64,000 bases of DNA from Octopus vulgaris (GCA_951406725.2 CATOCA020000001.1:2976001-3040000); one strand, 5' to 3'; numbered from the stretch's first letter, positions 27,136 through 60,558 are shown. Translations and numbers: made by a program. Notes: generated by a model from the letters alone, not told the origin.

Positions 27136-27136
27136 T

Positions 27137-31708: not shown

Positions 31709-32067
31709 GTGTATTTAGGGTCTACGAAACTCATGGTTCACTAGTTTTGTAAATATATTAGACCCCACCCCCGAAGATGGTTACAGAGTGTAGGAGTGCG
31801 TTTGTGTTTGTGTGTGTGTGTTTGGTGTTTTCTTTGATATTATTACGCGTTAAATCTATAATATTTTTATAAATTTCTTCACACTAATTTATCGAAATTT
31901 AATTTTTGAGCTTTAAATATCCAATCACGAAAACAAAACTATATTTGTCATGTGGACCAGGTGTGAATTTTAGTTGCTTCGGAGAATCTGCAATTTGAAG
32001 TTAATAACATTGAAATCTCTGACATTTCCTATTTTCTTCTTTTACAGATAAATCTACGCCTGGCAAT

Positions 32068-32258
32068 ATGTTTCACCACGTAGTATCATATAGACGGTCT
32101 CTTGTGTTGATACTGTGTACGATATTGTTTTTGGAGACTCAAGCTGATTCAGATATATGCAACACATGTAATTGCAATTCACTTACAACGAGAATAAATT
32201 GTATAAATCGCAATTTACTATCAATTCCACAGCCAATTCCGACGAATGTTAAATATTT
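32068..32258 (+). CDS. LRR protein first coding exon: signal peptide + LRRNT cap
   Basis: Acceptor ttttcttcttttacAG ends at 32047; ATG at 32068. MFHHVVSYRRSLVLILCTILFLETQA-DSDICNTCNCNSLTTRINCINRNLLSIPQPIPTNVKY. Ends TT|GTAAGT (phase 2). Confidence 0.92.
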
Positions 32259-34599
32259 GTAAGTATTTGACACTTTCTACGTATTTTCCACATCCAATAT
32301 TTTAAATTCTCATTGATTATGTTCTCAGCTAATCGCTTATGCTGTTTATCTCACAGCTTTAAGCACAATCTTATGTTAGAGTAAAACAAATCGATATGTT
32401 ACCTGTTGTGAAGTCAAATAAACTGTTTCCTACCATATTGAATTTATAATATATAACATCGCATACACAGAGATTGGATATGACTAGTATCTGTCTTTGA
32501 TGTCATTTGTCTGAACTTATCAAATCTTACGGTATATTCAATGAACGGACAGTGTAAAAACTTTAGTGCTAAGAAAACGTGTATTCCACATAGTTATATT
32601 ATATCATTAATTAGTTGAATTGTTGCTTATTATTACAGTAATATGATATATCAGTTGATCGTGTCACAGAATAATTGTTAATTATTTTTTTTGTTAATTT
32701 TATAATAGAATATGCAGCGAGCTATCAGAATCGTTGTGCACGCCAGACAAAATGTTGAGCGGTATTTCGTTCGTCTTTACGTTTCGATTTTAAATTCTGT
32801 CGAGGTTGACTTTGTTTTTCATTCTTTTGGAGTCGGTAAAATAAATAGCAATTTATCTCTGAGATCAATGTAAAGGACTTGTCCCTTTCCCAAAATTTCA
32901 GGTTTGTTCCTATGGAAGAAATTATTATTTTTATAATTAAAAATGAAACAGATGGATTAAACAGCAGATAATGACGAGATCCGCTTAAATTGCCAAATTC
33001 TTAAAATACCTAAGTGAAGAAATCAAAATAGTGTTATTTTAACAAATTATGAGGAATTTATTTTTGATAGAATGTCATCAGTAAAATTTACCCTATCATG
33101 AACACAATAAACCTTATTACAAAATTATAGAAGGTTAATTGAAGTTTCGGCTGATTGATGTATCCCCGTTCACCTGAAAACTTACGTAATTTTTAAGTAA
33201 ATTATTAAAATTTAACGTCTCAAGAAATGGAATAGAATAAAAAAGAGTAATTATTTGATACATGCAATCATAACAAATACTCTGTTGGAACACATTGCTC
33301 TTCCAGGTGATTATTTCCAGTTAATTGGCTTACATCATTGCATTAATCACCTTAAACTTTCAGTTTTAATCAAATATTCTAATACTAAAGTGGATCAATT
33401 CATTCGATCAGATCTATTTCTCAAAACATTTGGAACGTTTTGACAAAATGAGAAATCCTAATGTAAAATAAAGAGAAAAGTTTCAATAATGGAATTCCTA
33501 AATCTCGTATAACTCAAGATGTTGAATAGTAAAGTTGAAGTTCTGTTTAATAAGTTAGATATTTTCATCGTTCATAACTTGAGCGAGGTTTGGCACAAAT
33601 CATTTGACCGTCTAGCAGAATACATTGCGTTCTGACACACGGCAATCTGACTTCAAGTCCCGCTAAGGTCAACCTTGCGTCATTCATTTCCGAGATCAAT
33701 AAAAACTTATAACAGTTCAATGAACAAATGCAACTATGACGACGTCGAATATGACACCTTGCAGTATATTGTCTAGTTGTTTGTGATCTGAGTTAAAATC
33801 CCACACTTTTTATTTTACCGATTTTGAAAAAAGGATCAGACACGTTTTATAACTCCTGCAAGATCTCCAATACTTGTGAGGCAGATATCATTAATATTCC
33901 GTTTGAGCTGTTGCAGGTCAACCTTTACAGGAATAATGAAGAGGGATGCTACTTAGGGGAGGAAGGATTTAGCATAGGTAGTTAATAATGGGAACAAACT
34001 GAGGTTTAATACAACAAGAAAAAGAAGCAAAGGACTAAAAAAAGACGAAAAAACTAAGGCAATGTATGTAATCACATCCCTTTTTTAAATAACACCCTAA
34101 GCCAGTTAAATCACCATGTAAGGTTGTTCTCCTTTGTAGCACATGACTCAAAATTATATCAGGGTTTCCCCACTCTGCCTTCACCAATTCTATTAATAAA
34201 TCCCTTTCTATTTCTGTTATGTTTTCCTTCCTAGTCTATTATTTCAGTCTTGAAGTTTTGGGGGTTTATTTTTGTGAAGAACTTTTATGCATCAATTATG
34301 CAAAGGAAAGGAGTTTACTTTTGCAAAGATAAATTACTTTTGACAGCAAAGTGTAATAACAAATAGAATGCTCATTGGACAGAAACAAGATATTTATAAA
34401 TAAAGCTGACTTCTGAGATGATAAAAATATCTTCCACTGAAAACTGATGTTGCAACGAATGCTTTGTAAATCTAATTCAAATCACAAATATTTTGAACAT
34501 CCATTCTTTTCTCATATTTTACATGCATGTGTGTTTTTCATTCATACTTTACGTGGTGACTTAAATCCGTTTTATATCTTATATAATAAACTACCCGTA

Positions 34600-35365
34600 A
34601 ATCGAACAGAACCTTCGTGAAGAAGAAAAGAAAGCCTTACAAACTGAAGAATGACAATTCAATCATCCTAAAAGAAACCGATTAGGGAAGGGTGATAGCA
34701 GTCACGGACCAAGACTACTATAAAAATAAAATATTGGAAACAGACTAATCCTGCTACAAGGAAGAACCAAGACACCCGGAAAAAGTAATAGTGAATACAC
34801 TCAAAAGTCTGATAAATGAATACCAACGTTCATTCACAGATAAAGAGAAAGATTATTTATGCAGCTCTGTAATGAAAGAGAGTAATTTCTATGGATCACC
34901 CAAGATCTGCGAATGCTCCAAAATGCAAGGATCAGCATATAAAAATACTAAGACCTACTGACATCAAATTGAGACCAACAGTTGCTGGACCTTGAGCCCC
35001 AACACAACAACTGAGCCATCTTTTGGATATACTCCGCAAACCGTTATGCCCATTAATGGCCAGCTATACCCGAGACGATATGGATTTCCTCAAGCACATT
35101 CCACCCACTGTCCCAGAACGTACTATAGTGACAAGTTTTGATTAATTTTTACACTAATACACATCACACTTTGGGCCTGGAAGCAATCAAACACTGGGTA
35201 GAAAAACATAGCGGACGGATGGACGAACGCTTCAAAACGCATTTCCAAAGACACACGCCGGGAACTAGAAGACAACACCTTTAGATTCGATAATAAACTA
35301 TATCGACAGATAAAAAGGACATCACTACGGGGACGAGGTTCGCACACATACTCGCACCCAGAGGT
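34600..35365 (+). mobile_element. Decayed PLE reverse transcriptase fragment in the first coding intron
   Basis: LKNDNSIILKETD*G..., FYGSPKI, LRPTVAGP, LSHLLDILRKPL, DDMDFL, GLEAIKHW, NTFRFDNKLYRQIK. Confidence 0.8.
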
Positions 35366-35764
35366 AGATATACATATGTGTGTATATTTCTGAGTGTATA
35401 TGTGTGTATATTTCTGAGTGTATATATGTGTATGTGCTTATATGTGCATACATGTGCGTGTATGTGTGTGGATGTGTGTGTTGGTACATAGAGACGCAAG
35501 TCAAGTAAGAAATAAACATGAAACAGCTGCCACATTGAGACATTCTTCTTCTTCTTCTTCTTTTTCTTCCTCTTCTTCTTCTTCTTCTTCTTCTTCTTCT
35601 TCTTCTTCTTCTTCTTCTTCTTCTTCTTCTTCTTCTTCTTCTTCTTCGTCTTCTTCTTCTTCTTCTTCTTCTTCTTCTCCGTCTTCTTCTTCGTCTTCTT
35701 CTTCTTCTTCTTCTTCTTCTTCTTCTTCTTCTTCTTCTTCTTCTTCTTCCTCCTCCTCCTTCTT

Positions 35765-35795
<31 letters not shown>

Positions 35796-35868
35796 TTATT
35801 ATTATTATTATTATTATTATTCTTCTTCTTCTTCTTCTTCTTCTTCTTCTTCTTCTTTTTCTTCTTCG

Positions 35869-35899
<31 letters not shown>

Positions 35900-36032
35900 C
35901 CTCCTCTTGGTCTTCTTCTTCTTCTTATTATTATTATTCATCTTCTTCTTCTTCTTCTTCGTCTTCTTCTTTTTCTTCTTCTTCTTCTTCTTGTAATCTT
36001 CATCTTCTACGCCTTTTATTTCTTCTTCTGTT

Positions 36033-36064
<32 letters not shown>

Positions 36065-36354
36065 TTCTTTATCTTCTTCTTCTTCTTCTTCTTCTTCTTC
36101 TTCTTCTTCTCCTTTCTCCTTTCTTCTTCTTCTACTTCTCCTTCTGTCTTTCAATCCTTTTTCGGTTTTCATCTTGAACTCCTTCATTTTCCATGTCTAC
36201 TTTTTCTTGTTCTTGTTCTTCTTGTTCTTGTTGTTCTTCTTCTTCTTCGTTATCTTTCTTCTTCTTCTTCCTTTCATTCTGAAGTCACAGTTTTTGGTGT
36301 TTTCTCACAAATATTTTCAATATAATCTATTTTACTCTTTCTTTACTGCTATAG

Positions 36355-36426
36355 AAATCTTGAAGGGAACAACATTGCAACCATCAAAGAAGGAGCATTC
36401 ACGGGGCTTTCGAATTTAAAGACATT
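36355..36426 (+). CDS. LRR cassette exon A1 (72 nt)
   Basis: tAG|A...TT|GTAAGT; (L)NLEGNNIATIKEGAFTGLSNLKT. Confidence 0.92.
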
Positions 36427-37610
36427 GTAAGTTCGTTCAGTTTCTTGATACTATTATCCGAAAGTAATAATTGATGCTGATATATAAGCTCACAAATGTA
36501 TAAAATTTCAGACTGCGCCAAACAAAATCAATTCAAATTTGTAGAATGAACACGATTTAGGAAGATACAAAGAGAATATGAGAGAGCGAGACAATGTGAA
36601 AGAAAGAGAGAGAATTTGGGGGAGAAAGTGAAATAATAGGAAAAATATAATGTTCCTTTATTGTAGTTGCTTTGTTTCAATTCGCATCTCAATAACTCAT
36701 TTTTGTTCCCCAAATTTCAATGATTTTGATATGAATTTGTATTAGAAATGGTAACGTTTGTGAGTTCACATGTTTGCATCAAATATGTTTAGCTGAAGTA
36801 TATATGTATGTTCATATATAAGTGTAGTTCTGTGTGAAATGTGACTATATTATTCCTTTATTTTATATTTTGCATCCTCCTCCATTTCTTATTTCAATAT
36901 TCTCCTTCGTATTTCGATATTATCATTCAACTTCGAATTTTGTCATTCACTTCACGTTATTTATGTAATAGAGCAACTGAAGTGGAAGCGGAAAATATAT
37001 ATTCGAATAATATAGTCACATACATTCTATCTGTAAACCTGAAATACTTACTGTACTTGTAAGCTGGAATATTTGGCCTGATACAATTAAACTGCTGATA
37101 TATTTCTTGTAAGCGTGTGTTTTCTAATATTCTTGTGACAATGAAGCGATATGAAATAAATAATCTCTCTCACCATATTTCCACAAGGGTGAGTGGGAAT
37201 ATGTGTGATGTGAGTGTCCGTATCACCTTACGTCGTTGATATTATCAATATAGGTATGTGTATGAGTGCATTTGGATATGTTGATTTCTGAAACCGTATA
37301 TTCCCTGACCTTTTAGCCAAGTTCTCTCCTTCAAACGTTTGTTCCCTGTCCCTGAAATATCTCCTGTTTTTTCTTTGACTACATTTTCTCTTTCACCTTC
37401 TTGAACACCATGATTTTCAATGTGTCTTCTTCTTCTTCTTCTTCTTCTTCTTCTTCTTCTTCTTCTTCTTCTTCTTCTTCTTCTTCTTCTTCTTCTTCTT
37501 CTCCTCCTTCTTCTTCTTCTTCTTCTTCTTCTTCTTCTTCTTCTTCTTCTTCTTCTTCTTCTTCTTCTTCTTCTTCTTCTCCTTCAACTTCTTCTTCTTC
37601 TTCTCCTTCA

Positions 37611-37641
<31 letters not shown>

Positions 37642-37681
37642 CTTCTCCTCCTCCTTCTTCTTCTTCTTCTTCTTCTAATTC

Positions 37682-37713
<32 letters not shown>

Positions 37714-37726
37714 CTCCTCTACTTCA

Positions 37727-37757
<31 letters not shown>

Positions 37758-37823
37758 CTTCCTCCTCCTCCTCCTTCTTCTTCTTCTTCTTCTTCTTCTT
37801 CTTCTTCTTCTTCTTCTTCTTCA

Positions 37824-37906
<83 letters not shown>

Positions 37907-37957
37907 TTCTTCTTCTTCTTCTTCTTCTTCTTCTCCTTCTTCTTCTTCTTCTTCTTC

Positions 37958-37988
<31 letters not shown>

Positions 37989-38163
37989 CCTTTCTTCTTC
38001 TTCTTCTTCTTCTCCTTCTTCTTCTTCTTCTTCTCCTTCCTTCTTTTTCTTCTTCTTCTTCTTCTTCTTCTTCTTCTTCTTCTCCTCCTCCCCCCACCCT
38101 CCCCATCTTCCTTCTTCTTCTTCTTCTTCTTCTTCTTCTTCTCCTCCTCCTCCTTCTCCTTCA

Positions 38164-38194
<31 letters not shown>

Positions 38195-38342
38195 CTTCTC
38201 CTCCTCCTCCTCCTCCTTCTTCTTCTTCTTCTTCTTCTTCTTCTTCTTCTTCTTCTCCTTCAACTTCTTCTTCTTCCTCTTCTTCTTCTTCTTCCTTCTT
38301 TCTTCTTCTTCTTCTTCTTCTCTTCTTCTTCTTCTTCTTCTT

Positions 38343-38373
<31 letters not shown>

Positions 38374-38829
38374 TTTCATAAACTTACTCCCGTACTTTCT
38401 GCTTCGTCAGTTTTCTCCTTTTTCTTTCTCTTCTACTCTTTTCTGCTATTCTCATTCTCCTCCTTCCCATTCTGCACCTCTTCTCTTCTCTCCTCCCCTC
38501 TCTTCCTCCAATCTCCTTTTTCTCCTCCTCCACGCCTTCTCCACTTTTCCCGCCCCCTACATATCACCTTTCCCACCTCCTCATCCCCTCATCCCCCTTC
38601 TACCCCTCCTCATTCTTCTCATTCTCCTCCCCTTCTCGTCACCCCTACCCGCTTCCTCTCATCCCCGTACGTCTTCTTCTTTTCTTCTTCTTCTACTTCT
38701 TCTTCTTCTTGTTCTTCTTCTTCATTATCCCTATTCTTTCTCTCTCTTTCATTCTAAAGTCACAGTGTTTGATGTCGTATCACAAATATTTTCCATATAA
38801 TCTATTTTACTCTTTCTTTACTGCTATAG

Positions 38830-38901
38830 AAATCTTTGGAACAACAACATTGCAACCATCAAAGAAGGTGCATTCACGGGGCTTTCGAATTTAAAGACAT
38901 T
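38830..38901 (+). CDS. LRR cassette exon A2 (72 nt)
   Basis: tAG|A...TT|GTAAGT; (L)NLWNNNIATIKEGAFTGLSNLKT. Confidence 0.92.
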
Positions 38902-41177
38902 GTAAGTTCGTTTAGTTTCTTGATACTATTATCCGAAAGTAATAATTGATGCTGATATATAAGCTCACAAATGTATAAAATTTCAGACTGCGCCAAACAA
39001 AATCAATTCAAATTTGTAGAATGAACACGATTTAGGTAGATACAAAGAGAATATGAGAGAGCGAGACAATGTGAAAGAAAGAGAGAGAATTTGGGGGAGA
39101 AAGTGAAATAATGGGAAAAATATAATGTTCCTTTATTGTAGTTGCTTTGTTTCAATTCGCATCTCAATAACTCATTTTTGTTCCACAAATTTCAATGATT
39201 TTGATATGAATTTGTATTAGAAATGGTAACGTTTGTGAGTTCACATGTTTGCATCAAATATTTTTAGCTGAAGTATATGTGTATGTTCATATATAAGTGT
39301 AGTTCTGTGTGAAATAAGAATATATTATTCCTTTATTTTATATTTTGCATCTTCCTCCATTTCTTATTTCAATATTCTCCTTCGTGTTTCGATATTATCA
39401 CACCAACTTCGAATTTTATCATTCACTTCACGTTATTTATGTAATAGAGCAACTGAAGTGGAAGCGGAAAATATAAATTCGAATAATATAGTCACATACA
39501 TTCTATCTGTAAACCTGAAATACTTACTGTACATGTAAGCTGGAATATTTGGCCTGATACAATTAAACAGCTGATATATTTCTTGTGAGCGTGTGTTTTC
39601 TAATATTCTTGTGACAATGAAGCGATATGAAATAAATAATATCTCTCACCATATTTCCGCAAGGGTGAGTGGGAATATGTGTGATGTGAGTGTGCATACC
39701 GCATTCCGTCGTTGATACTATGAATATAAGAATGCGTATGAGTGCATTTGAATATGTTGATTTCTGATTCCGTATATTCCCTGATTTTTCAGCCATGTCT
39801 TCTCGCCCAAAATCTTTCATTCTATCCTTGAATTATTTCCTGATGTTTGGAGAACATTTTCAGTTTCATCTTAAACACCATGATTTTCAATGTGTCTTCT
39901 TCTTCTTCTTCTTCTTCTTCTTCTTCTTCTTCTTCTTCTTCTTCTTCTTCTTCTTCTTCTTCTTCTTCTTCTTCTTCTTCTTCTTCTTCTACTTTCAACT
40001 TCTTCATCTACCCTTCCTCCTCCTCCTCCTTCTTCTTATTATTATTCTTTATTCTTTTTCTTCTACACCTACTTTTTCCCTATCATCCTCTTCCTCCTCC
40101 TTTTTCCTCTTCCTTTCTTCTACTTCTTTTTTCATCTTCTTTTTTTCTACCCAATCCTCTCTGCCCCTCCTCCTCCTTTTTCTTCTTGTAATTCTCCTCC
40201 TCCCTTCCACTCCTGCTCCTTTTCTTCTTCTGCTTCTTCTTCTAATTCTTCTTCTTCTTCTTCCTCCTCCTTCTTTCTTTTCTTCTTCTCATTCTTCTAT
40301 TTCTTTTTTTTCTTCTTATATTCTTCTTCTTCTTTTACTTCTTTATCTACTTCTCCTCCTACCCCCCTTTCTTCTTATATTCTTCTTTTTATTATTCTCA
40401 TCCTCCTCCTCCTTCTCCTTCATCTTCTTCTCCTTTTTCATCTTCTCCTACTTATTCTCCCCCTTCATACTCCTACTCCTCCTCCTTTTTCCTCTTCTTC
40501 CTTCTTCTTCTTCTTCTTCTTCTTCTTCTTCTACATCTCCTCCTCCTCCTTCTCCTTCTTAACTTCTGTTTTTGTTATTCTCTTTCTCCTCCTCCTCCTC
40601 CTCCTCCTCCTCTTTCTTCTTCTTCATCTTCTTTTTCCTGCTTCAACTTCTTCTACGTCTTCTTCTTCTTCTTCCCTTCCTTCTTCTTGCAATTCTTCTT
40701 CTTCCCCTTCTTCTTCTTCCCTTCCTTCTTCTTCTTCTTCTTCTTCTTCTTCTTCTCCTTCTTCTTCTCCTTCTTCTTCTTCTTCTTCTTCTCCTTTCTT
40801 CTTTCTACTTCTTCATCTAATTCTCCTCCTCCTCTTCCTCGTCTTTCTTATTCTTATCTTCTTCTTCTTGTTATTCTCTTCCTCCTCCTCCTCCTCCTCC
40901 TCCTTCTTCTTCTTTTACTTTTTCTCCTACATCTTCTTCCCTTTTATCATCCTCCTCCTCCTTTTTCCTCCTATTCCTTCTTGCTCTTCTTTTTCTTCTA
41001 CTTCTTCTTTCTTCTTCTTCTAATTCTTCTTCGCCTCCTCCTCTTCCTTCTTCTTCGTCTTTTTCTTCTTCGTTATCTTTTTTCTTTTTCTTCCTTTCAT
41101 TCTGCAGTCACAGTGTTTGATGTTGTATCACAAATATTTTCCATATAATCTATTTTACTCTTTCTTTACTGCGATAG

Positions 41178-41204
41178 AGATCTTGGAGGGAACAACATTT
41201 CAAC
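41178..41204 (+). pseudogene. Truncated type-A LRR cassette
   Basis: Type-A acceptor module, then DLGGNNIS, breaking at caac into a CTT tract; no donor. Confidence 0.85.
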
Positions 41205-41428
41205 TTCTCCTACATCTTCTCCCCCCTCCTCTTCCTCCTTATCTTCTTTTCCCCTTCCCCCTCCTCCCCTTTCTTCTTCTTCTTCTTCTTCTTCTTCTTC
41301 GTCTTCTCCTTTTCTTCTTCATTTCGTATTATTTTCCTATAATTTGTCCCTTTTCATAAAGAACAATATTGAATATGTTATCGCAATTCACACTATGTCA
41401 ATCTAACCAATATTGTTTCCTGCTTCAG

Positions 41429-41500
41429 ACGTCTTTCCTACAATAAAATTTCAAGGATTGAAAAAGAGATGTTTCAAGGCCTTCACGACTTAGAGATATT
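41429..41500 (+). pseudogene. LRR cassette B1 with mutated splice donor
   Basis: cAG|(L)RLSYNKISRIEKEMFQGLHDLEI followed by ATAAGT instead of GTAAGT. Confidence 0.8.
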
Positions 41501-42538
41501 ATAAGTTCTTTCAATGTTGTCTTTTATACATGAGGAATATACTATGTCTTTAAATTTAATATCCCCTTATTTCCATGTTTTCTCACTCTCTATTACTGTA
41601 AATCATATTCAGTTCTCATATTCGTGTTATATTTATTTGATTGAGTCTGAACATGTCAATGACTGTCAGTTGATAATTGTCTGCATAAAAATGTTATTCC
41701 TGCAAATATATATGTGTATGTTCATATGTATGTATGTATCTGCACTATTAATATAAGTTTTAGCTACTATTTTCTTACACATTGTTCTCTTGATTCTGTG
41801 GTGCCGTGTGGTTATTTATCCACACTTCCACCGAGATAATTTTTTTGTTATTGTTGTTGTTGTTGTTATGTTCTTCTTCTTGTAATTATCCTTTTCCCCT
41901 CCTCCCCCACCTCCCTCTCCTCCATTTTCTTCTTATTATTATTATTGCAATTCTCCTCCTCAACCTCCCCTCTTCGTCCTACTCATCATCCTTTTTCTTC
42001 AGTTTCTTCGTTCTCTTCTATTTTTCTTCTTCTTCATCTTCTTCTTCTTCTTCTCCTTTCCTTCTTCATCTTCTCCATGTTCCTCTTCTTCTTCTACTTC
42101 TTTCTCTTCTTTGTCTTCTTCTTTTTCTTCTTATTCTTTTTCTTCTTTTTCTTCTCTGTACTTTCTGCTCCGACACTGTTCTCCCTCTTTTCCATTCTCT
42201 GCCAATTCTTCATCTTATTCTCAGTCTCCTGTCCCTCCTGCTCCTTCTGCAGCTACCCCCAGCTGCCCCTCCTCAGTCATCCCTTCCTTTGTCCTCCTCC
42301 TAACATCCCCGCCTCTCCACCTCCTCGTCAATTCTCCTTCCTCTTCTTCTTCTTCTTCTTTCTTCTTCTTCTTCTTCTTCTTCTTCTTCTCCTTCTCCTT
42401 TCTAGTTCTTCTTCTTCTTCTTCTTCTTCTTCGTAATCTTTCTTCTTTTTCTTCCTTTCATTCTCAAGTCACAGTGTTTGATGTCGTATCACAAATATTT
42501 TCCATATAATCTATTTTACTCTTTCTTTACTGCTATAG

Positions 42539-42610
42539 AGATCTTGGAGGGAACAACATTTCAACCATCAAAGAAGGTGCATTCACGGGGCTTTCAAATT
42601 TAAAGAAATT
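42539..42610 (+). CDS. LRR cassette exon A3 (72 nt)
   Basis: AG/GT intact; (L)DLGGNNISTIKEGAFTGLSNLKK. Confidence 0.92.
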
Positions 42611-43765: not shown

Positions 43766-43796
<31 letters not shown>

Positions 43797-47842: not shown

Positions 47843-47873
<31 letters not shown>

Positions 47874-47952: not shown

Positions 47953-47983
<31 letters not shown>

Positions 47984-49672: not shown

Positions 49673-49704
<32 letters not shown>

Positions 49705-49814
49705 CTTCCCTCTACTTCCTCTTCTTCTTTCCTTCTTGTTCTTCTCCTTGTATTCCTTCTTCTTCTTGTTCTTCTACTTTTCTTCTTCTCTTTCTTGTTC
49801 TTCTTCGCCTTCTA

Positions 49815-49845
<31 letters not shown>

Positions 49846-50599
49846 TTCCCTTATTCATTATATTACCATGTAAATTCTTTCTTCACATAATGAACATTAT
49901 TCAATATTTCGTGTTATATTTATTTGATTGAGTCTGAACATGTCACTGACTGTCAGTTGATAATTGCCTGCATAAAAATGTTATTCCTGAAAATATATAT
50001 GTGTATGTTCATATGTATGTATGTATCTGCACTATTAATATAAGTTTTAGCTACTATTTTCTTACACATTGTTCTCTTGATTCTGTGGTGCTGTGTGGTT
50101 ATTTATCAACACTTCCACCGAGATAATTTTTTTGTTATTGTTGTTGTTGTTTTTGTTCTTCTTCTTGTAATTCTCCTTGTTCTTCTTCTTCTCCTTCTCC
50201 TTCTCCTTCTTTTCCTTTTCTTCTTCTTCTTCTTCTTCACCTCCTCCTCCTCCTCCTCCTCCTTCCCCTTCTTCTATTTCTTCTTCTTCATTTTCTTCTT
50301 TTTCTGCTTCTTCTTTTTCTCCTCCTCCTCCTTCTTCTTCTTTTCTTCTTCTTCTTCTTCTTCTTTTTTCTTCTTCTTCTTCTTTTTCTCCTTCTCCTCC
50401 TCCTTCTTCTTTTTCTCCTCCTCCTCCTCATTCTTCTTCTTCTCCTCCTTCTTCTTCTTCTTCTTCTTCTTCTTCGTCTCCTCCTCCTCCTCCTCCTTCT
50501 TCTTCTTATTCTTATTCTTCGTCTCCTCCTTCTTCTTCTTCTTCTTCTTGTTCTTCTTCTTGTTCTTCTTCTTGTTCTTCTTCTTCCCTTATTCATTAT

Positions 50600-50725
50600 A
50601 CTACCATATAAATTCTTTCTTCACATAATGAACATTATTCAATATTTCGTCGCAATTACATACGATGTGAAACTAAGCAAAGTTTCTTCCTGCCTCATAT
50701 ATCTTCTGAACGATGACATTTTTTG
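50600..50725 (+). pseudogene. Relic type-C cassette with dead acceptor (further copies at ~61305-61430 and ~61760-61882)
   Basis: tcgcaattacatacgatgtgaaactaagcaaagtttcttcctgc(c/t)tcAT|atatctt aligns with the type-B acceptor tcgcaattcacactatgtcaatctaaccaatattgtttcctgcttcAG|atatctt. It is followed by YLLNDDI. Confidence 0.6.
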
Positions 50726-52678
50726 GCATTTCCTTAATATATCGACGAATCAACTACTTGACTCTATTCATGATATATCTCTTTGAATGTGCCTGGACAT
50801 GACAACGACTGGCATTGTCGTTAGATTAATTTCTTCTTCTTCTCCTTCTTCTTCTTCTTCTTCTTCTTCTTCTTCTTCTTCTTCTTCTTCTTCTTCTTCT
50901 TCTTCTTCTTCTTCTTCTTCTTCTTCTTCTTCTTTATCTTCTTCTTCTTCATTTCTTCTATTCTTCTTTTCTCTTCCACTTCTCCTTCATTTTCTTCTTG
51001 TAATTCTCTTCCTCCTCCTCTTCTTCCCCTCCTCCTCCTTTTTCTTCTTGTAATTCTTATCCCCCTCCCCCTTCCCATCCTGTTCCTTTTTCTACTTCCT
51101 CTTCTTCTCCTTCTTTTTCTCCTCCTTCTTCTTCTTATTATTATTCTTCTACATCTTCTCCTTCTTCTCCTCCACCTTCTTCTTCTTCTTTTTCTTCTAC
51201 TCCTCCTCGTCTTCCTCCTCCTTCTCTTTCTTCTTCTTCTTCTTCTTCTTCTTCTTCTTCTTCTTCGTCTTCCTCCTCCTTCTCCTCCTCCTCCTCCTTC
51301 TTCCTCTTCTAATTGTTTTTCTTCTTCTTGTTCTTCTTGTTCTTCTTTATTTTCTTTATTTATTTCTCTTCCACCTCCTCTCCACCCCTCCTCCTCCTTT
51401 TTCTTCTTGTAATTCTCCTCCTCCCCCTCCCCTCCTGCTCCTTTTTCTTCTCCTTCTTCTTCTCTTCCTCGTCCTCCTTCATTTTCTTTTTCTTCTTCTC
51501 TCTTTTCTACTTCTTTTTTTCTATTTCTTTTTCTTCTTCTTTTTCTCCTTCATCTTCTTCTTCTACGTCTTCTTCTTCTTCTTCTTCTTCTTCATCTTAA
51601 ACTTCTTCTTCATCTTCTTCTTCTTCTTCTTCTCTTTCTTCTTTATCCTCTTATTCTTCGTCCTCTCGCCTGCTGCTCCTTCTCTTTCTTCTTCTTCTTC
51701 TTATTATTATTATTCTTATTCTCTTCCTTCGTCTTCTACCTCTCCTCCTCGTCCTCCTTCTTATTCATTTTTTCTTCTTCTTCTTCTTCCTCCTCTTCTT
51801 GTTTTTCTTCTACTCCTACTTCTTCCACTTTATCCTCCTCCTCCTCCTTTTTCCTCTTCCTTCTTCTTCTATTCCTTTTTTCCCCTTGTTTTTCTAGTTC
51901 TTCTAATTCTTCTTCTTCTTCTTCTACTTCTCCTCCTCGTTTTCCTCCTTCTTTTTTCTTCTTCTCTTTCGTCTACTTCCTTTTTTTTCTTTTTCTACTT
52001 CTTTATGTACTTCTCCTCCTACTTTTTTCTTCTTCTTATCTTCTTCTTTTTGTTATTCTCCTTCTCCTCCTCCTCTTTCATCTTCTTCTTCTTCTTTCTT
52101 CTACTTCTTCTTATTCTTCCCTTTCATTCTCCTCCTCCTTTTTCGTCCTCTTCCACCTTTTTCTTCTTTTCTTCTCCTTCTTCTCCTTCTTCTACTTCTT
52201 CTTATTCTTCTTCTCCTCCTCCTCCTCTTCTTCTTCCCCCCTCCACCTCCTCATCCTCCTTCTTTTTCTTTTTCTTCTTCTTCATCTACTTCTCCTCTTC
52301 CACTTCCTCTTTCTTCTTCTTATCTTCTTCTTTTTATTATTCTCCTCCTCCTTCTCCTTTCCTTCTTCTTTTTCTTCTTATCCTAGTTCTTCTTCCCTTT
52401 TATCCTCCTCCTCCTCCTTTTCCTCCTAATCCTTATTCTTCTTCTTTTTCTTCCTCTTCTTTTTCTTCTTCTTCATTCTTCTTCTTCTAATTCTTCTTCT
52501 TCTTCTTTTTCTTCCTCTTCGCCTTCTCCTCCTCCTTTCTTCTCCTTATTCTTGATTTTCTTGTTCTTCTTCGTTATCTTTCTTCTTCTTCTTCCTTTCA
52601 TTCTGAAGTCACAGTTTTTGGTGTTTTCTCACAAATATTTTCCATATAATCTATTTTACTCTTTCTTTACTGCAATAG

Positions 52679-52750
52679 ACGTCTTTGGAAGAACAACATT
52701 GCAACCATCAAAGAAGGAGCATTCACGGGGCTTTCAAATTTAAAATACTT
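52679..52750 (+). CDS. LRR cassette exon A5 (72 nt)
   Basis: AG/GT intact; (L)RLWKNNIATIKEGAFTGLSNLKY. Confidence 0.92.
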
Positions 52751-54501
52751 GTAAGTTCGTTCAGTTTCTTGATACTATTTTCCGAAAGTAATAATTGATG
52801 CTGATATATAAGCTCACAAATGTATAAAATTTCAGACTGCGCCAAACAAAATCAATTCGAATTTGTAGAATGAACACGATTTAGGAAGATACAAAGAGAA
52901 TATGAGAGATTGAGACAATGTGAAAGAAAGAGAGAGAATTTGAGAGAGAAAGTGAAATAATAGGAAAAATATAATGTTCCTTTATTGTAGTTGCTTTGTT
53001 TCAATTCGCATCTCAATAACTCATTTTTGTTCCCCAAATTTCAATGATTTTAATATGAATTTGTATTAGAAATGGTAACGTTTGTGAGTTTACATATTTG
53101 CATCAAATATTTTTAGCTGAAGTATATATGTATGTTCATATATAAGTGTAGTTCTGTGTGAAATGTGACTATATTATTCCTTTATTTTATATTTTGCATC
53201 TTCCTCCATTTCTTATTTCAATATTCTCCTTCGTATTTCGATATTATCATTCAAATTCGAATTTTGTCATTCACTTCACGTTATTTATGTAATAGAGCAA
53301 CTGAAGTGGAAGCGGAAAATATATATTAGAATGATGTAGTCACATACATTCTAATATATATTTAAGTACATTTTCAGTTTCGTCTTCAACACCATGATTT
53401 TCAATGTGTCTTCTTCTTCTTCTTCTTCTTCTTCTTCTTCTTCTTCTTCTTCTTCTTCTTCTTCTTCTTCTTCTTCTTCTTCTTCTTCTTCTTCTTCTAC
53501 TTCTTCTTTTTCTCCTCCTCTTTTTAATCTTCTACATCTTCCTATTCTGCTCTACCCTCTGCTCCCTCTGCTCCCCCTCCTCCCCTCTTTTACTTCTTCT
53601 AATTCTTCTTCTTCTTCTCCTTCTTTTTCTCCTTCTTCTCCTTCTTCTTCTTCTTCTTCTTCTACTTCTCCTCCTCGTCTTCCTCCATCTTTTTCTTTTA
53701 TTCTTCTCTTTCTACTACTTTTATTTTTCTTCTTCTTCTTCTTACTTCTCCTTCTTCTTCTTCCCTTTCATCCGCCTCCTTCTTCTTTTTTCTCACCTTC
53801 TTTTTTTTCTACTTCTTCTTCTTCTTCCTCTTCTTTTGCTTCTACTTGTTATTCTTCTTCTCCTTCTTCTCCTTCTCCTTCTTCTTCTACTTCTCCTCCT
53901 CGTCTTCCTTCTTTTTTCTTTTTCTTCTTCTCCTACTTCTACTTTCTACTTCTTCTCTTCCTCTTTCTCCTCTTCCTCCTCCTTCTTCATATCCTTCTTC
54001 TTTTTCCTGCTTCGTCTTCTTCTTCGTCTTCTTCCTTTTCCTCTTCTTCTTCTCCTTTTTCCTTCCTCTTCTTTTCCTTCCTTTTCTTCTTTTTCTCCTC
54101 ACCGTCCTCCTTGTACTTCTTCTTTTTCTTCCTCCTCTTTTTAATCTTCTACATCTTCTTCTTCTTCTAGTCTACCCTCTGCTCCTCTTCCTATTTTCCT
54201 CTCCCTCCTGCATCTTCTGGTCCTATTCCGTCCTCAACCTTCTTCTTTTCCTCCACTCCTTCTCCTCCAACTCCTCCTTTTTCTACCTCTTCTCCCCCCT
54301 CCTCTTCCTCCATGTCTTCTTCTTTTGCGCTTCCCCTCCTCCCCTTCTTCTTTGTCTTCTTCTTCTCCTCAATCTCTTTCCTGTTCCTCTTCTTCTCGTA
54401 TTATTTTCCTATAATTTTGTCCCTTTTCATAAAGAACAATATTGAATATGTTATCGCAATTCACACTATGTCAATCTAACCAATATTGTTTCCTGCTTCA
54501 G

Positions 54502-54573
54502 ACGTCTTTCCTACAATAAAATTTCAAGGATTGAAAAAGAGATGTTTCAAGGCCTTCACAACTTAGAGAAATT
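54502..54573 (+). CDS. LRR cassette exon B4 (72 nt)
   Basis: AG/GT intact; (L)RLSYNKISRIEKEMFQGLHNLEK. Confidence 0.92.
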
Positions 54574-55711
54574 GTAAGTTCTTTCAATGTTGTCGTTTAT
54601 ACATGAGGAATATACTATGTCTTTAAATTTAATATCCCCTTATTTCCATGTTTTCTCACTCTCTAATACAGTAAATCATATTCAGTTCTCATATTCGTGT
54701 TATATTTATTTGATTGAGTCTGAACATGTCAATGACTGTCAGTTGATAATTGTCTGCATCAAAATGTTATTCCTGAAAATATATATGCGTATGTTCATAT
54801 GTATGTATGTATCTGCACTATTAATATAAGGCTTAGCTACTATTTTCTTACACATTGTTCTCTTGATTCTGTGGTGCCGTGTGGTTATTTATCCACACTT
54901 CCACCGAGATAATTTTTTTGTTATTGTTGTTGTTGTTGTTTTGTTCTTCTTCTTGTAATTATCCTTTTCCCCTCCTCCTCCACCTCCTTCTCCTCCTTTT
55001 TCTTCTTCTTGCAATTCTCCTCCTCAACCTCCCCTCTTCGTCCTACTCATCCTCCTTTTTCTTCAATTTCTTCTTTCTCTTTTTCTATTTTTCTTCTTCT
55101 TTCCTTCTTCGTCTTCTTCTTCTTTCCTTCTTCATCTTCTTCATGTTCCTCTTTTTCTTCTTCTTCTTCTTCTTCTTCTTCTTCTTCTTCTTCTTCTTCC
55201 TTTTCTTTGTCTTCTTCTTCTTCTACTTCCTCTTCTTCTTCTTCTTCTTTCTTCTTCTTCTTCTTCTTCTTCTTCTTCTTTTTGTTCTTTTTCTTTTTTC
55301 TTCTCTGTACTTGCTGCTCCGTCACTGGTCTCCCTCTTTCCCATTATCTGCCAATTCTTTCTCTGATTCTCAGTCTGCAGCTCTTCCTGCTCCTTTTGCT
55401 GCTACACCCAGCGGATCCCTGCTCAGTCACCCCTTCCTTTGTCCTCCTCCTAACCTCCCCACCTCTCCACATCCTCCGCCTCCTCCACCTCCTCGTCAAT
55501 TCTCCTTCCTCTCCTTCTTCTTCTTCTTCTTCTCCTTTCTTCTTCTTCTACTTCTTTTTCTTCTTCTCCTACTTCACCTCCCCCTCCTTCTTCTTCTTCT
55601 TCTTCGTTATCTTTCTTCTTTTTCTTCCTTTCATTCTCAAGTCACAGTGTTTGATGTTGTATCACAAATATTTTCCATATAATCTATTTTACTCTTTCTT
55701 TACTGCTATAG

Positions 55712-55783
55712 AGATCTTGGTGCCAACAACATTGCAACCATCAAAGAAGGTACATTCACGGGGCTTTCAAATTTAAAAGAATT
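55712..55783 (+). CDS. LRR cassette exon A6 (72 nt)
   Basis: AG/GT intact; (L)DLGANNIATIKEGTFTGLSNLKE. Confidence 0.92.
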
Positions 55784-56960
55784 GTAAGTTCGTTTAATTT
55801 CTTGATACTATTTTTCGAAAGTAATAATTGATGCTGATATATAAGCTCACAAATGTATAAAATTTCAGACTGCACTGAAGAAAATCAATTCGAATTTGTA
55901 GAATGAACACGATTTAGCAAGATACAAAGAGAATAGGAGAGAGCGAGACAATGTGAAAGAAAGAGAGAGAATTTGAGAGAGAAAGTGAAATAATAGGAAA
56001 AATATAATGTTCCTTTATTGTAGTTGCTTTGTTTCAATTCGCATCTCAATAACTCATTTTTGTTCTCCAAATTTCAATGATTTCGATATGAATTTGTATT
56101 AGAAATGGTAACGTTTGTGAGTTTACATGTTTGCATCAAATATTTTTAGCTGAAGTATATGTGTATGTTCATATATAAGTGTAGTTCTGTGTGAAATATG
56201 AATATATTATTCCTTTATTTTATATTTTGCATCTTCCTCCATTTCTTATTTCAATATTCTCCTTCGTGTTTCGATATTATCACACCAACTTCGAATTTTG
56301 TCATTCACTTCACGTTATTTATGTAATAGAGCAACTGAAGTGGAAGCGGAAAATATATATTAGAATGATGTAGTCACATACATTCTATCTGTAAACCTGA
56401 AATACTTACTGTACTTGTAAGCTGGAATATTTGGCCTGATACAATTAAACTGCTGATATATTTCTTGTAAGCGTGTGTTTTCTAATATTCTTGTGACAAT
56501 GAAGCGATATTAAATAAATAATATCTCTCACCATATTTCCGCAAGGGTGAGTGGGAATATGTGTGATGTGAGTGTGCATACCGCATTCCGTCGTTGATAC
56601 TATGAATATAAGAATGCGTATGAGTGCATTTGAATATGTTGATTTCTGATTCCGTATATTCTGATTTTTCAGCCATGTCTTCTCGCCCAAAATTTACCGC
56701 TCTATCCTTGAATTATTTCCTGATATCTTGAGAACAATTTTAATCTCGTCTTGAATACCATGATTTTAAAAGTGTCTTCTTCTTCTTCTTCTTCTTCTTC
56801 TTCTTCTTCTTCTTGTTGTTGTTCTTCTTCTTCTTATCTTACTGAAACAATTTTTCTCTCTTCTTCTTCTTCCATTCTTCTTCTTCTTGTTCTTCTTCTT
56901 CTTCTTCTTCTTCTTCTTCTTCTTCTTCTTCTTCTTCTTCTTCTTCTTCTTCTTCTTCTT

Positions 56961-56991
<31 letters not shown>

Positions 56992-57259
56992 TCTTCTTCT
57001 TCTTCTTCTTCTTCTTCTTCTTCTTCTTCTTCTTCTTCTTCTTCTTCTTCTTCTTCTTCTTCTTCTTCTTCTTCTTCTTCTTCTTCTTCTTCTTCTTCTT
57101 CTTCTTCTTCTTCTTCTTCTTCTCTTCTTCTTCTTCTTCCCCTTCTTCTTCTTCTTCTTCTTCTTCTTCCTCTTCGTCTTCTTCTTCTTTCTTCTTCTCT
57201 TCTTCTCTTCTTCTTCTTCTTCTTCCTTCTACTTCTTCTTCTTCCTCTCGTCTTCTTCT

Positions 57260-57291
<32 letters not shown>

Positions 57292-57881
57292 TTCTTCTTC
57301 TTCTTCTTCTTCTTCCTTTTCTTTGTCTTCTTCTTCTTCTACTTCCTCTTCTTCTTCTTCTTCTTCGTCTTCTTTCTTCTTCTTCTTCTTCTTCTTCTTC
57401 TTCTTCTTCTTCGTCTTCTTCTTTCCTACTTCTTCTTCATGTTCCTCTTCGTCTTCGTCGTCTTCTTCTTCTTCCTCTTATTTTTCTCCTTCTTCTTCCT
57501 TTTCTTTGTCTTCTTCTTCTACTTCCTCTCCTTCTTCTTCTTCTACTCCCCCTTCTTCTTCTTCTTCTTCTTCTTCTTCTTCTTCTTCTTCTTCTTCGTC
57601 TTCTTCTACTTCCTCTTCCTCCACTTCGTCTTTTTCTTCTCCTTCTTCTTTTTTTTTCTCCTTCTTCTTCTTCTTCGTCTTCTTCTTCTTTCCTACTTCA
57701 TCTTCTTCATGTTCTTCTTTTTCTTCTTCGTCGTCTTCTTCTTCTTCTTCCTCTTATTTTCTCCTTCCTCTTATTTTCTTCCTTTTCCTTGTCTACTTCT
57801 TCTTCTTCCTCTTCTTCTTCTTCTACTCCCCCTTCTTCTTCTGTATCTTCTTCTTCGTCTTCTTCTACTTCCTCTTCCTCC

Positions 57882-57912
<31 letters not shown>

Positions 57913-58699
57913 CTTCTTCTCCTTCTTCTTCTTCTTCTTCTTCTTCTTCTTCTTCTTCTTCTTCTCCTTCTTCTTCTTCTTCTTCTTCTTCTTCTTCTTC
58001 GTCTTCTTCTTCTTTCCTACTTCATCTTCTTCATGTTCCTCTCTTCTTCGTCGTTTTCTTCTTCTACTTCCTCTTCTTCTTCTGCTTCTTCTTCTCCTTC
58101 TTCTTCTTCTTCTGTATCTTCTTCTTCTTCTGCATCTTCTTCTTCTTCTTCTTCTTCTTCTTCTTCTTCTACTTCCTCTTCTTCTTCTTCTTCTTCTTCT
58201 TCTTCTTCTTCTTCTTCTTCTTCTTCTTTTTCTTCTTCTTTTTCTTCTCTGTACTTTCTGCTTCGTCACTGGTCTCCCTCTTTTCCATTCTCTGCCAATT
58301 CTTCCTCTTATTCTCAGTCTGCAGCTCTTCCTCCTCCTTCTGCTGCTACCCGCAGCGGCCCCCTCCTCAGTCATCCCTTCCTTTGTCCTCCTCCAAACAT
58401 CCCCGCCCCTCCATCCCCTCCACCTCCTCCACCTCCTCGTTAATTCTCCTTCCGTTTCTTCTTCTTCTCCTTCTTCTTCTTCTTCTTCTTCTTCTTCTTC
58501 TTCTTCTTCTTCTTCTTCTTCTTCTTCTACTTCTTCGTCTTCTCCTACTCCACCTCCTCCTCTTCCTCCTCCTTCTCCTTCTTCTTCTTCTTCGTTATCT
58601 TTCTTCTTTTTCTTCCTTTCATTCTGAAGTCACAGTGTTTGATGTTGTATCACAAATATTTTCCATATAATCTATTTTACTTTTTCTTTACTGCTATAG

Positions 58700-58771
58700 A
58701 CTTCTGAGATGGAACAACATTTCAACCATCAAAGAAGGAGCGTTCACGGGGCTTTCGAATTTAAATACATT
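58700..58771 (+). CDS. LRR cassette exon A7 (72 nt)
   Basis: AG/GT intact; (L)LLRWNNISTIKEGAFTGLSNLNT. Confidence 0.92.
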
Positions 58772-60486
58772 GTAAGTTCGTTCAGTTTCTTGATACTATT
58801 TTCCGAAAGTAATAATTGATGCTGATATATAAGCTCACAAATGTATAATATTTCAGACTGCACCGAACAAAATCAATTCAAATTTGTAGAATGAACACGA
58901 TTTAGGAAGACACAAAGAGAATAGGAGAGAGCGAGACAATGTGAAAGAAAGAGAGAGAGTTTGAGAGAGAAAGTGAAATAATAGGAAAAATATAATGTTC
59001 CTTTATTGTAGTTGCTTTGTTTCAATTCGCATCTCAATAACTCATTTTTTTTCCCCAAATTTCAATGATTTTGATATGAATTTGTATTAGAAATGGTAAC
59101 GTTTGTGAGTTTACATGTTTGCATCAAATATTTTTAGCTGAAGTATATGTGTATGTTCATATATAAGTGTAGTTCTGTGTGAAATGTGACTATATTATTC
59201 CTTTATTTTATATTATGCATCCTTCTCCATTTCTTAATTCAATATTCTCCTTCGTATTTCGATATTATCATTCAAATTCGAATTTTGTCATTCACTTCAC
59301 GTTATTTATGTAATAGAGCAACTGAAGTGGAAGCGGAAAATATATATTAGAATGATGTAGTCACATACATTCTAATATATATTTAAGTACATTTTCAGTT
59401 TCGTCTTCAACACCATGATTTTCAATGTGTCTTCTTCTTCTTCTTCTTCTTCTTCTTCTTCTTCTTCTTTCTTCTTCTTCTTCTTCTTCTTCTTCTTCTT
59501 CTTCTTCTTCTTCCTCTACTTCTTCTTTTTCTCCTCCTCTTTTTAATCTTCTACATCTTCCTATTCTGCTCTACCCTCTGCTCCTCCTCCTCCCCTCTTT
59601 TACTTCTTCTAATTCTTCTTCTTCTTCTCCTTCTTTTTCTCCTTCTTCTTCTTCTTCTACTTCTCCTCCTCGTCTTCCTCCATCTTTTTCTTTTATTCTT
59701 CTCTTTCTACTACTTTTATTTTTCTTCTTCTTCTTCTTACTTCTCCTTCTTCTTCCCCTTCATCCGCCTCCTTCTTCTTTTTTCTCACCTTCTTTTTTTT
59801 CTACTTCTTCTTCTTCTTCTTCTTCTTCTTTTGCTTCTTCTTGTTATTCTTCTTCTCCTTCTTCTCCTTCTCCTTCTTCTTCTACTTCTCCTCCTCGTCT
59901 TCCTTCTTCTTCTTCTTCTTCTTCTTCTACTTCTACTTTCTACTTCTTCTCTTCCTCTTTCTCCTCTTCCTCCTCCTTCTTCATATCCTTCTTCTTTTTC
60001 CTGCTTCTTCTTCTTCGTCGTCTTCTTTTTCCTCTTCTTCTTCTCCTTTTCTTCCTCTTCTTTTCCTTCCTCTTCTTATTTCTTCTCCTCACCGTCCTCC
60101 TTGTACTTATTCTTTTTCTTCCTCCTCTTTTTAATCTTCTACATCTTCTTCTTCTACTCTACCCTCTGCTCCTCTTCCTATTTTCCTCCCCCTCCTCCAT
60201 CTTCTGGTCCTATTCCGTCCTCAACCTTCTTCTTTTCCTCCACTCCTTCTCCTCCAACTCCTCCTTTTTCTACCTCTTCTCCCCCCTCCTCTTCCTCCAT
60301 GTCTTCTTTTCCCCTTCCCCCTCCTCCCCTTCTTCTTTGTCTTCTTCTTCTCCTCAATCTCTTTCCTGTTCCTCTTCTTCTCGTATTATTTTCCTATAAT
60401 TTTGTCCCTTTTCATAAAGAACAATATTGAATATGTTATCGCAATTCACACTATGTCAATCTAACCAATATTGTTTCCTGCTTCAG

Positions 60487-60558
60487 ATATCTTTCCTACA
60501 ATAAAATTTCAAGGATTGAAAAAGAGATGTTTCAAGGCCTTCACAACTTAGAGACATT
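60487..60558 (+). CDS. LRR cassette exon B5 (72 nt), identical in sequence to B3
   Basis: AG/GT intact; (L)YLSYNKISRIEKEMFQGLHNLET. Confidence 0.92.

Follow-up and report, generated by a model that had tools for sequence, protein, structure and literature searches.

A variable array of single-LRR exons in a predicted secreted derivative of an octopus adhesion GPCR

What kind of gene carries leucine-rich repeats (LRRs) that come one to an exon, in many near-copies, and what might such a gene recognize? The question is raised by a stretch of 64,000 nucleotides of Octopus vulgaris DNA (GCA_951406725.2 CATOCA020000001.1:2976001-3040000; G000:C31:2976001-3040000 in our numbering), which is referred to as a whole as the window, with positions counted from its first letter. 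An earlier note, made from this sequence alone, had described here a candidate variable LRR receptor built from interchangeable one-repeat exon cassettes, and had suggested that it might serve an immune, allorecognition or chemosensory role. The answer that we somewhat favor is that the LRR array in the window forms the variable head of a secreted protein derived from an octopus adhesion G protein-coupled receptor (GPCR) with the domain order LRR-LU-SEA-HRM-GAIN-7TM, from which the seven-transmembrane (7TM) domain has been lost, and that the concave face of its LRRs binds a fast-changing ligand, likely of microbial or parasite origin. The anatomy of this system and its germline hypervariability are well supported. 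The arrays contain 2–15 units, short tracts are traded across genes, and change falls at four to six positions of the LRR strand, with the scaffold fixed.

The cassette array and the gene around it

The cassettes were found in the sequence in the order that had been read before, A A [A' B*] A B A B [C] A B A A B [C C] (brackets denote decayed units), and the exon for the signal peptide and the N-terminal cap (LRRNT) was confirmed at 32048-32258. The features of the window are as follows:

32048..32258, + strand: exon 1, signal peptide and LRRNT cap, ATG at 32068; contigs span 32046-32258 and end at the splice sites
36355..36426, + strand: LRR cassette A1, intact, 72 nt, phase 2
38830..38901, + strand: LRR cassette A2, intact
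41178..41204, + strand: A', truncated cassette that passes into a pyrimidine tract, without donor
41429..41500, + strand: B*, 72-nt cassette with AT as donor, presumed skipped
42539..42610, + strand: LRR cassette A3, intact
44644..44715, + strand: LRR cassette B1, intact
46688..46759, + strand: LRR cassette A4, intact, used by database model P0002
48782..48853, + strand: LRR cassette B2, intact
50587..50814, + strand: C remnant 1, decayed B-like acceptor region, AG lost
52679..52750, + strand: LRR cassette A5, intact, used by database model P0002
54502..54573, + strand: LRR cassette B3, intact
55712..55783, + strand: LRR cassette A6, intact
58700..58771, + strand: LRR cassette A7, intact
60487..60558, + strand: LRR cassette B4, intact
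61293..61521, + strand: C remnant 2
61745..61972, + strand: C remnant 3
35543..62379, + strand: (TTC)n and pyrimidine tracts, pure and degenerate, in all inter-cassette introns
62380..64000, + strand: remainder of the intron that runs out of the window

The window gene contains 11 intact 72-nt LRR exons (seven A and four B), all framed as AG-72-GT with phase-2 boundaries. The count of twelve 72-nt exons given in the earlier note holds for the number of units, but the twelfth is B*, whose donor is dead. The other decayed units are one truncated A cassette and the three C remnants, which are 75–79% identical to the 5′ flank and exon start of B and have lost the AG, so they are regarded as B-like acceptor remnants. 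As had been proposed, cassettes were copied together with their intron flanks, which are 91–98% identical across 280–790 nt; whole-cassette similarity far exceeds chance (blastn E values of ∼1e-46 to 1e-66). TTC-type tracts fill 49% of bases 36355–60558 and 0% of bases 1–32000. Because each 24-aa LRR corresponds to a symmetric phase-2 exon, whole exon-plus-flank units can be gained or lost without a break of the frame.

The gene extends 39 kb past the window, with 13 further exons (G000:C31:3040936-3078708) that encode, in order, a capping LRR, LRRCT, two LU domains, three SEA domains, two HRM domains, three more SEA domains and a short terminal segment. The joined exons form an open frame of 767 codons with no internal stop, all 24 introns are of the GT-AG type, and the predicted layout of the protein is signal peptide-LRRNT-LRRs-LRRCT-Ly6/uPAR-SEA-HRM-SEA-tail. 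Extension of the locus in the 3′ direction thus yielded the LRRCT that had been anticipated, but no transmembrane or 7TM segment was found in the window gene. The 767-aa protein contains no hydrophobic segment after the signal peptide (the top hydropathy past residue 30 is 0.87), GAIN and GPS are absent from the gene, with only 1.4 kb between the last SEA exon and the terminal exon, and no 7TM exon is present in 40 kb around its 3′ end. A genome search for 7TM domains, in which 128 of 370 candidates were scored, likewise gave no match near the gene. Since GAIN and 7TM are lost from this copy, its product is predicted to be secreted rather than to act as a signalling receptor, and the gene is a derivative of an adhesion GPCR and not an adhesion GPCR itself. 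The terminal exon (L004:8656-8708) is the retained exon of the former cytoplasmic tail, and it ends in a possible PDZ-binding motif, which would now be extracellular.

Pfam detected LRRs and a weak HRM match. The other domains were assigned mainly from a structure model of the relative P0117 (mean predicted local distance difference test, pLDDT, of 80), in which the cysteine-rich part resembles Ly6/uPAR three-finger domains with middling scores (Lypd6b, Z 7.6; Prod1, Z 7.5; range for the LU fold, 7.2–7.6) and the next part resembles SEA domains (TMPRSS6, Z 9.7; an isolated SEA domain, Z 8.8). Foldseek with this LU-SEA model returned nothing at E 0.001, and a wider search placed both domains; an atlas search with the LU region gave no usable match, and a Lingula relative has a Pfam LU-type match at the corresponding region. 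For P0016, the model of the complete protein was of low quality (mean pLDDT 55, below 50 in the LU region), so its Foldseek matches, the top ones of which include proteins resembling variable lymphocyte receptors (VLRs), are taken only as generic LRR matches. The LU domain itself is tandemly duplicated, in 2–3 copies, in P0010, P0019 and P0052 of O. sinensis.

The peptide of exon 1 is 100% identical to an Octopus vulgaris protein named 'adhesion GPCR G6-like' (P0002), and all 21 matches are Octopus proteins, which agrees with the cephalopod origin previously held probable. Full-length paralogues go on into GAIN, GPS and a secretin-type 7TM, GAIN and GPS being visible also in the neighbor P0007. 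The order LRR-LU-SEA-HRM-GAIN-7TM recurs, at ∼30% identity, in lophotrochozoan adhesion GPCRs from Aplysia, Physella, Saccostrea, Gigantopelta, Lingula and Tubulanus that carry automatic names such as ADGRG2-, G4-, G6- or A3-like. In the relatives seen there, the LRR block is short, with few repeats, and the 7TM is complete, whereas the young octopus clade has 2–15 near-identical hypervariable cassettes and mostly no 7TM. An LGR/GRL101-type or TLR/Slit identity was ruled out, as the downstream exons encode LU-SEA-HRM and the paralogues carry 7tm_2.

The earlier note had not recognized the family as described, and in this respect it was not borne out: the family is part of group 3 of the known adhesion-GPCR expansion that Ritschard et al. 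2019 (PMC6408891) described as specific to octopuses. The supplements of that paper place three O. bimaculoides relatives in group 3. In a tree of the GPS-7TM region with 18 rows, 11 octopus rows form one side of a branch with an SH-aLRT support of 100, and these rows take in the three listed group-3 proteins and the 7TM-bearing neighbor of the window gene, which is 93–97% identical to it in DNA over exon 1 and the post-array region of the ectodomain. In group 3, LRRs were reported in five of 22 members and positive selection at the level of branches, with none found by a sites test; exon cassettes, gene conversion and 7TM-less forms do not figure in the accessible account (PMC6408891). The sequences for that survey were gathered through 7TM Pfam signatures, so 7TM-less forms would escape it.

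How the 7TM was lost can be read from the 3′ end of the gene. The intron past the last SEA exon resembles, at its start, the intron before GAIN in full-length genes, and it leads to a terminal exon that, in a full-length paralogue, follows the 7TM; ∼22 kb are missing in between. Among 18 other loci, chosen by a close match of their terminal exon to that of the window gene, this SEA-to-tail junction is collinear at 89–98% identity in 17 and partial in one, and the last SEA exon lacks a stop in all 17. Both loci that lie beside 7TM exons match in the tail only. The sharing of the junction by 17 other loci indicates that one deletion was amplified to at least 18 copies. The window gene most probably arose from a group-3 adhesion GPCR through deletion of GAIN and 7TM. 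It belongs to a young family of ∼20 near-identical genes, of which a minority are membrane-bound and the majority lack the 7TM.

The window gene and its 7TM neighbor (C31:2.95 Mb) form an inverted duplication with 93–98% identity over the upstream DNA and most of the ectodomain. Their cassette counts differ, with 11 in the window gene and two in the neighbor, and LRR heads may have been exchanged between soluble and membrane backbones. The two genes stand head to head, 56 kb apart. The duplication is a mosaic, in which window positions 2461-5477 and 11921-33889 correspond at 93–98% to G000:C31:2950136-2976704, and an inverted repeat (1-704 / 2461-3172) belongs to it. Direct duplications of 0.2–1.1 kb at ∼95% identity occupy 15426-30680, upstream of exon 1. 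Two reading frames of 347 and 366 aa, at window positions ∼5900-6950 (− strand) and at G000:C31:3071710 (+ strand, within the gene), presumably represent fragments of non-LTR reverse transcriptases.

Several further features were noted in the family. In its youngest 7TM members, RLK replaces HLT at the GPS (L078, C31:2.95 Mb; L072, C30:18.89 Mb), and older members keep HLT, so that the youngest members may not self-cleave. The family member P0064 / P0212 of O. bimaculoides has a C-terminal Death domain and 71% skin expression in a published table. At G000:C9:28.42-28.88 Mb lies a tandem cluster of ∼15 apparently single-exon secretin-type 7TM frames of 400–700 aa with ∼32% identity to the search query. 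The older members L080-L084 (G000:C29:13.40 Mb) and L066-L070 (C30:18.47 Mb) contain 13–17 one-LRR exons from earlier block duplications, which indicates that cassette turnover is long-standing in the family.

Variation and recombination among the young arrays

A genome search with exon 1 gave 40 scored matches (of 43 candidates), 15 of them at 91% or more. Nineteen arrays were mapped, or 21 with two older ones; at least eight 7TM-less loci were unmapped upstream, and the cassette totals are lower bounds. The 15 youngest arrays contain 2–15 cassettes each and 118 in total, 103 of which are intact; the search for paralogous arrays elsewhere in the genome was thus successful. A 15-cassette array at G000:C5:141.88 Mb has opposite-strand cassettes just upstream (L058:1268-5367) with no exon 1 found, an arrangement that probably reflects an inversion within or beside the array. 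In a 13-cassette array (L044-L046, G000:C31:4.20-4.23 Mb), the capping exon and LRRCT were not found, and the protein P0018 joins this array to ankyrin repeats as either a chimera or an annotation artefact.

The cassettes of the young arrays are nearly all different in sequence, with distinct peptides encoded by 81 of the 85 intact A cassettes and 17 of the 18 intact B cassettes. When the repeat is numbered by the motif LxxLxLxxNxL, positions x5, x7, x8 and x3 each accommodate 12–13 amino acids in the 85 A cassettes, with a nonsynonymous diversity (pN) of 0.49–0.64; the nucleotide diversity (π) of the intron flanks is 0.05–0.08 across the same cassettes, and N9, I11 and L1 are unchanged in all 85. 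For the six strand positions together, which by LRR geometry we take to form the concave face, pN is 0.43, compared with 0.049 at other codons. At x5, 82 of 85 cassettes have T as the last base of the codon and the first two bases vary, giving 13 amino acids. The capping repeat and LRRNT are biased in the same way, and LRRNT is variable between paralogues. Within the window, the bases of the four codons, which were picked once the family-wide diversity was known, differ by 52% in the 21 A-A pairs, compared with 5.8% for the remaining exon and 3.8% for the 3′ flank; the corresponding values for the six B-B pairs are 16.7%, 1.7% and 3.3%. Two claims of the earlier note are upheld: the expansion of cassettes was recent, and the variability is targeted, being concentrated at four codons in the window and family-wide.

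Several analyses indicate that the variable patches move between cassettes. In 23 pairs with flanks less than 1% diverged, the bases of the hot codons are still 47% different, and identical 9-nt patches are shared by up to six genes on flanks of ordinary distance. The nearest neighbor by flank sequence lies in a different gene for 62 of the 85 cassettes. In intron DNA, analysed at 88 sites in 64 of the 85 rows, the four-gamete test fails for 47% of the pairs of sites, r2 drops from 0.10 to 0.03 past 25 nt (permutation p 0.001), so that linkage decays within ∼25–50 nt, and the data require a minimum of 40 crossovers within 900 nt (Rm 40), counts that recurrent mutation may inflate. The four-gamete failures, the decay of linkage and the shared patches together point to frequent conversion of short tracts across the family. 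An intron tree of 72 of the 85 cassettes is weakly resolved (13 of 69 branches starred); on it, the window gene clusters by gene (3 label changes versus 6.8 when shuffled) and six other genes show no such clustering. This weak tree points to local tandem duplication in the window gene as well.

The boundaries of the duplicated units mostly coincide with pyrimidine tracts. The 3′ flank and the next 5′ flank both abut such tracts in 64 of 66 A-A and 18 of 19 A-B introns; at the same cut-off this was seen in one of 16 B-A and neither of two B-B introns, for which the B flank used as reference stopped before the tract began. Two older genes contain only ∼1 kb of such tract in 40–50 kb, and their flanks are mostly diverged. 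By analogy with the repeats of the sea-urchin SpTransformer genes (PMC5103432), TTC tracts may have a causal role in cassette turnover. As they fill about half of each intron, breakpoints would often fall within them by chance.

Arrays of near-identical exons could also arise in the assembly, if haplotypes were left uncollapsed or repeats joined wrongly. Of the 15 young arrays, 11 lie on a single contig of 12 Mb (C31), and some of them may for this reason be alleles; small indels are common there, and some copies are at contig ends. However, the units share 91–98% identity but have distinct tracts, different peptides are encoded by 81 of the 85, a diploid allows at most two copies per locus, an independent sequencing run matches exon 1 and the first cassette of one paralogue exactly, and the sister species O. 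sinensis has arrays of the same kind. An assembly artefact is thus highly improbable.

Transcripts, turnover and possible function

Exon 1 is covered from acceptor to donor by contigs of four runs from four studies, and the unique intron has no contig coverage. In two runs, a contig continues from exon 1 into an A cassette. One of these contigs corresponds, with zero mismatches, to the exon 1 variants and first cassette of the paralogue at C31:10.81 Mb, which is of the 7TM-less kind; the other is at least two bases off every mapped cassette. The splicing of exon 1 to cassettes is therefore seen in paralogues, but not for the window gene itself. As for turnover, only two of 44 young-type cassette rows of O. 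sinensis (36 distinct) match O. vulgaris exactly, a count from which unmapped arrays could hide others, and one 7TM gene keeps five cassettes in order between the two species, four of them identical. With differences both among paralogues and between sister species, the rapid turnover that had been suggested is supported.

For this system we propose the following mechanism. Unequal crossover, helped by TTC tracts, would set the number of repeats, germline gene conversion would recombine patches of the binding face, and diversifying selection would retain the recombined patches. The concave face would bind a fast-changing ligand, most likely surface molecules of microbes or parasites at barrier tissues, and the soluble forms could be opsonins or decoys, or could assist the 7TM forms as co-receptors. 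The recognition of microbes or parasites is, by a modest preference, the function we consider most likely, and the data suggest an inherited, fast-evolving recognition system.

Several results weigh against this proposal. The runs, whose records state neither RNA nor tissue or treatment, were only guessed to be RNA, the contig comparison covered the exon 1 region, and no contig from that region in the four runs could be assigned to the window's own gene. Published group-3 expression in O. bimaculoides is mixed, with one protein at 71% in skin, one at 87% in testis and others in viscera, nerve cord or broadly expressed among the table rows considered, and gills were reported for C. minor (PMC6408891). 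The database model P0002 includes only A4 and A5 of the 11 cassettes and leaves out the LU exons; current gene models thus misdescribe the gene. The TTC role is a correlation. The diversity figures are pairwise counts on related, non-independent sequences and not codon-model estimates, and the ratio of pN to synonymous diversity (pS) at the six concave codons is only 1.15 for A, with 7.6 for B; because multiply hit codons inflate pS, the case for selection rests on the comparison with introns. Frameshifts affect nine young cassettes in which the two splice sites are preserved, and exon 1, the capping exon or LRRCT is broken in four genes. By a rough estimate, exon breakage is at least as common as the short indels of the neighboring introns would predict, so that many of the copies may be pseudogenes or contain indels introduced in assembly.

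The broken copies bear on a reading in which the arrays are mostly the product of neutral, repeat-driven churn, with TTC tracts and segmental duplication multiplying a truncated adhesion GPCR, copies decaying and old variants being shuffled unselected. In addition to the four genes, 15 of the 118 young cassettes are broken, and exon frameshifts are not obviously rarer than intron indels. The pN of 0.049 at non-concave codons is near the π of the flanks, and a synonymous diversity in exons of 0.175, higher than in the flanks, implies that old variants are recycled. Yet neutral conversion should homogenize the four codons just as it does the 390 flanking bases, and the youngest pairs differ ∼70-fold more at these codons. 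The nearly constant third base of x5, T in 82 of 85 cassettes beside two bases whose variation gives 13 amino acids, is likewise not expected of neutral shuffling, the pattern is repeated in B cassettes, the capping repeat and LRRNT, and paralogues are spliced. For these reasons we consider neutral churn very unlikely.

Diversity could alternatively be generated mainly within the individual, by combinatorial skipping of cassettes as in Dscam or ROCO genes or by somatic conversion between them. All cassettes are in-frame symmetric exons, database entries for O. sinensis include 13 isoforms of one locus that differ by multiples of 24 aa and seven of another, and the O. vulgaris model P0002 omits nine of the 11 cassettes of the window gene. 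The isoform lists were rejected as proof of exon skipping, as repeats in some of them look like mid-exon hybrids of two cassettes, which are expected when reads are mis-mapped between near-identical exons. Furthermore, in the sole assignable contig the first cassette follows exon 1 directly, and germline differences already account for the diversity seen, so this explanation seems unlikely. Still more doubtful is an anticipatory system, in which paired 7TM and soluble receptors would draw on a shared pool of more than 100 cassettes through TTC-assisted germline reshuffling together with skipping or somatic conversion in blood cells, and which would make the family a functional analogue of VLRs in a mollusc.

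The same anatomy would also suit a ligand made by the octopus itself, in a self/non-self, cell-identity or chemotactile code of the skin, suckers and arm nerve cord, comparable to clustered protocadherins or an allorecognition locus. The LRR model fits Slit, NGL and 5T4 about as well as VLRs (poor model, generic LRR matches). The family also has LU and SEA domains, which are common in neural and epithelial surface proteins. In O. bimaculoides, group 3 was moreover found to be enriched in axial nerve cord, suckers and skin, and a protocadherin-like role was suggested for it (PMC6408891). The near-complete turnover between sister species and the many broken copies would nevertheless fit an arms race better, and most young copies, having lost the 7TM, lack cell autonomy. 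This makes an octopus-made ligand rather unlikely; if it were the case, the family would be a candidate for self-recognition or for an identity code of arms and suckers.

Under the favored reading of a secreted head that recognizes microbes or parasites, the family is a concrete candidate in cephalopods, with measurable predictions about binding residues, soluble copies and repertoire differences between animals. In its accessible parts, a 2026 review names no diversified recognition receptor for cephalopods and lists FREPs for molluscs. Adhesion GPCRs are usually conserved and here evolve like immune receptors, and they have spawned secreted genes with the ectodomain only, which surveys based on the 7TM would miss. 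A literature search, with most subscription papers outside its reach, found no description of cassette exons, site-specific variation or 7TM-less forms in this family. In summary, the diversification system is real and apparently undescribed, inside a known octopus gene expansion.

Comparison with known systems

The VLRs of agnathans, to which the earlier note had compared the array, share with the octopus family an LRRNT-LRR-LRRCT solenoid, a variable concave face and a conversion-like reuse of cassette patches. Membrane and secreted forms are a further common trait, the secreted ones being predicted in the octopus. In VLRs, the LRRs are followed by a stalk with a glycosylphosphatidylinositol (GPI) or membrane anchor. 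The octopus window protein has no such stalk anchor, as its C-terminus is not hydrophobic and LU-SEA-HRM-SEA come after LRRCT. According to the 2026 review, germline VLR genes are incomplete and somatically assembled by cytidine deaminases; the octopus germline gene, in contrast, is complete (767-aa frame), its cassettes are spliced exons with canonical splice sites, and the exchange observed is between germline copies. A true VLR identity was accordingly rejected, and the likeness stands as an analogy only, since the germline gene is complete and in frame.

The SpTransformer (Sp185/333) genes of sea urchins are also a young clustered family in which short tandem repeats edge the duplicated units, and these repeats were proposed to drive duplication, deletion and conversion (PMC5103432). 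They differ in that the protein is unrelated, the repeats flank whole genes and not single exons, and an immune function has been shown, whereas the octopus family is known here from its sequence. The crab 'VLR2' is another invertebrate LRR protein, whose isoforms vary in LRR content and in bacterial binding; it is a single gene diversified by splicing, and the accessible text reports neither multigene cassette exchange nor a GPCR origin (PMC10045472).

A similar exon structure is that of brown-algal ROCO genes, which have 72-bp phase-2 exons that encode one LRR each, exon shuffling and four positively selected sites on the concave face; brown-algal LRR receptors with the same evolutionary pattern are candidate immune receptors (PMC11378527). 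The octopus array resembles them in its 72-nt phase-2 one-LRR exons, which are shuffled and diversified. ROCO proteins are, however, intracellular ROC-COR GTPases with documented alternative splicing (PMC11378527), whereas the octopus proteins are extracellular and derived from an adhesion GPCR, with skipping only suggested. No ROC-COR domain was matched by Pfam in six family proteins, and the exon map leaves no space for one. The octopus cassettes and the ROCO genes are convergent and not homologous as systems.

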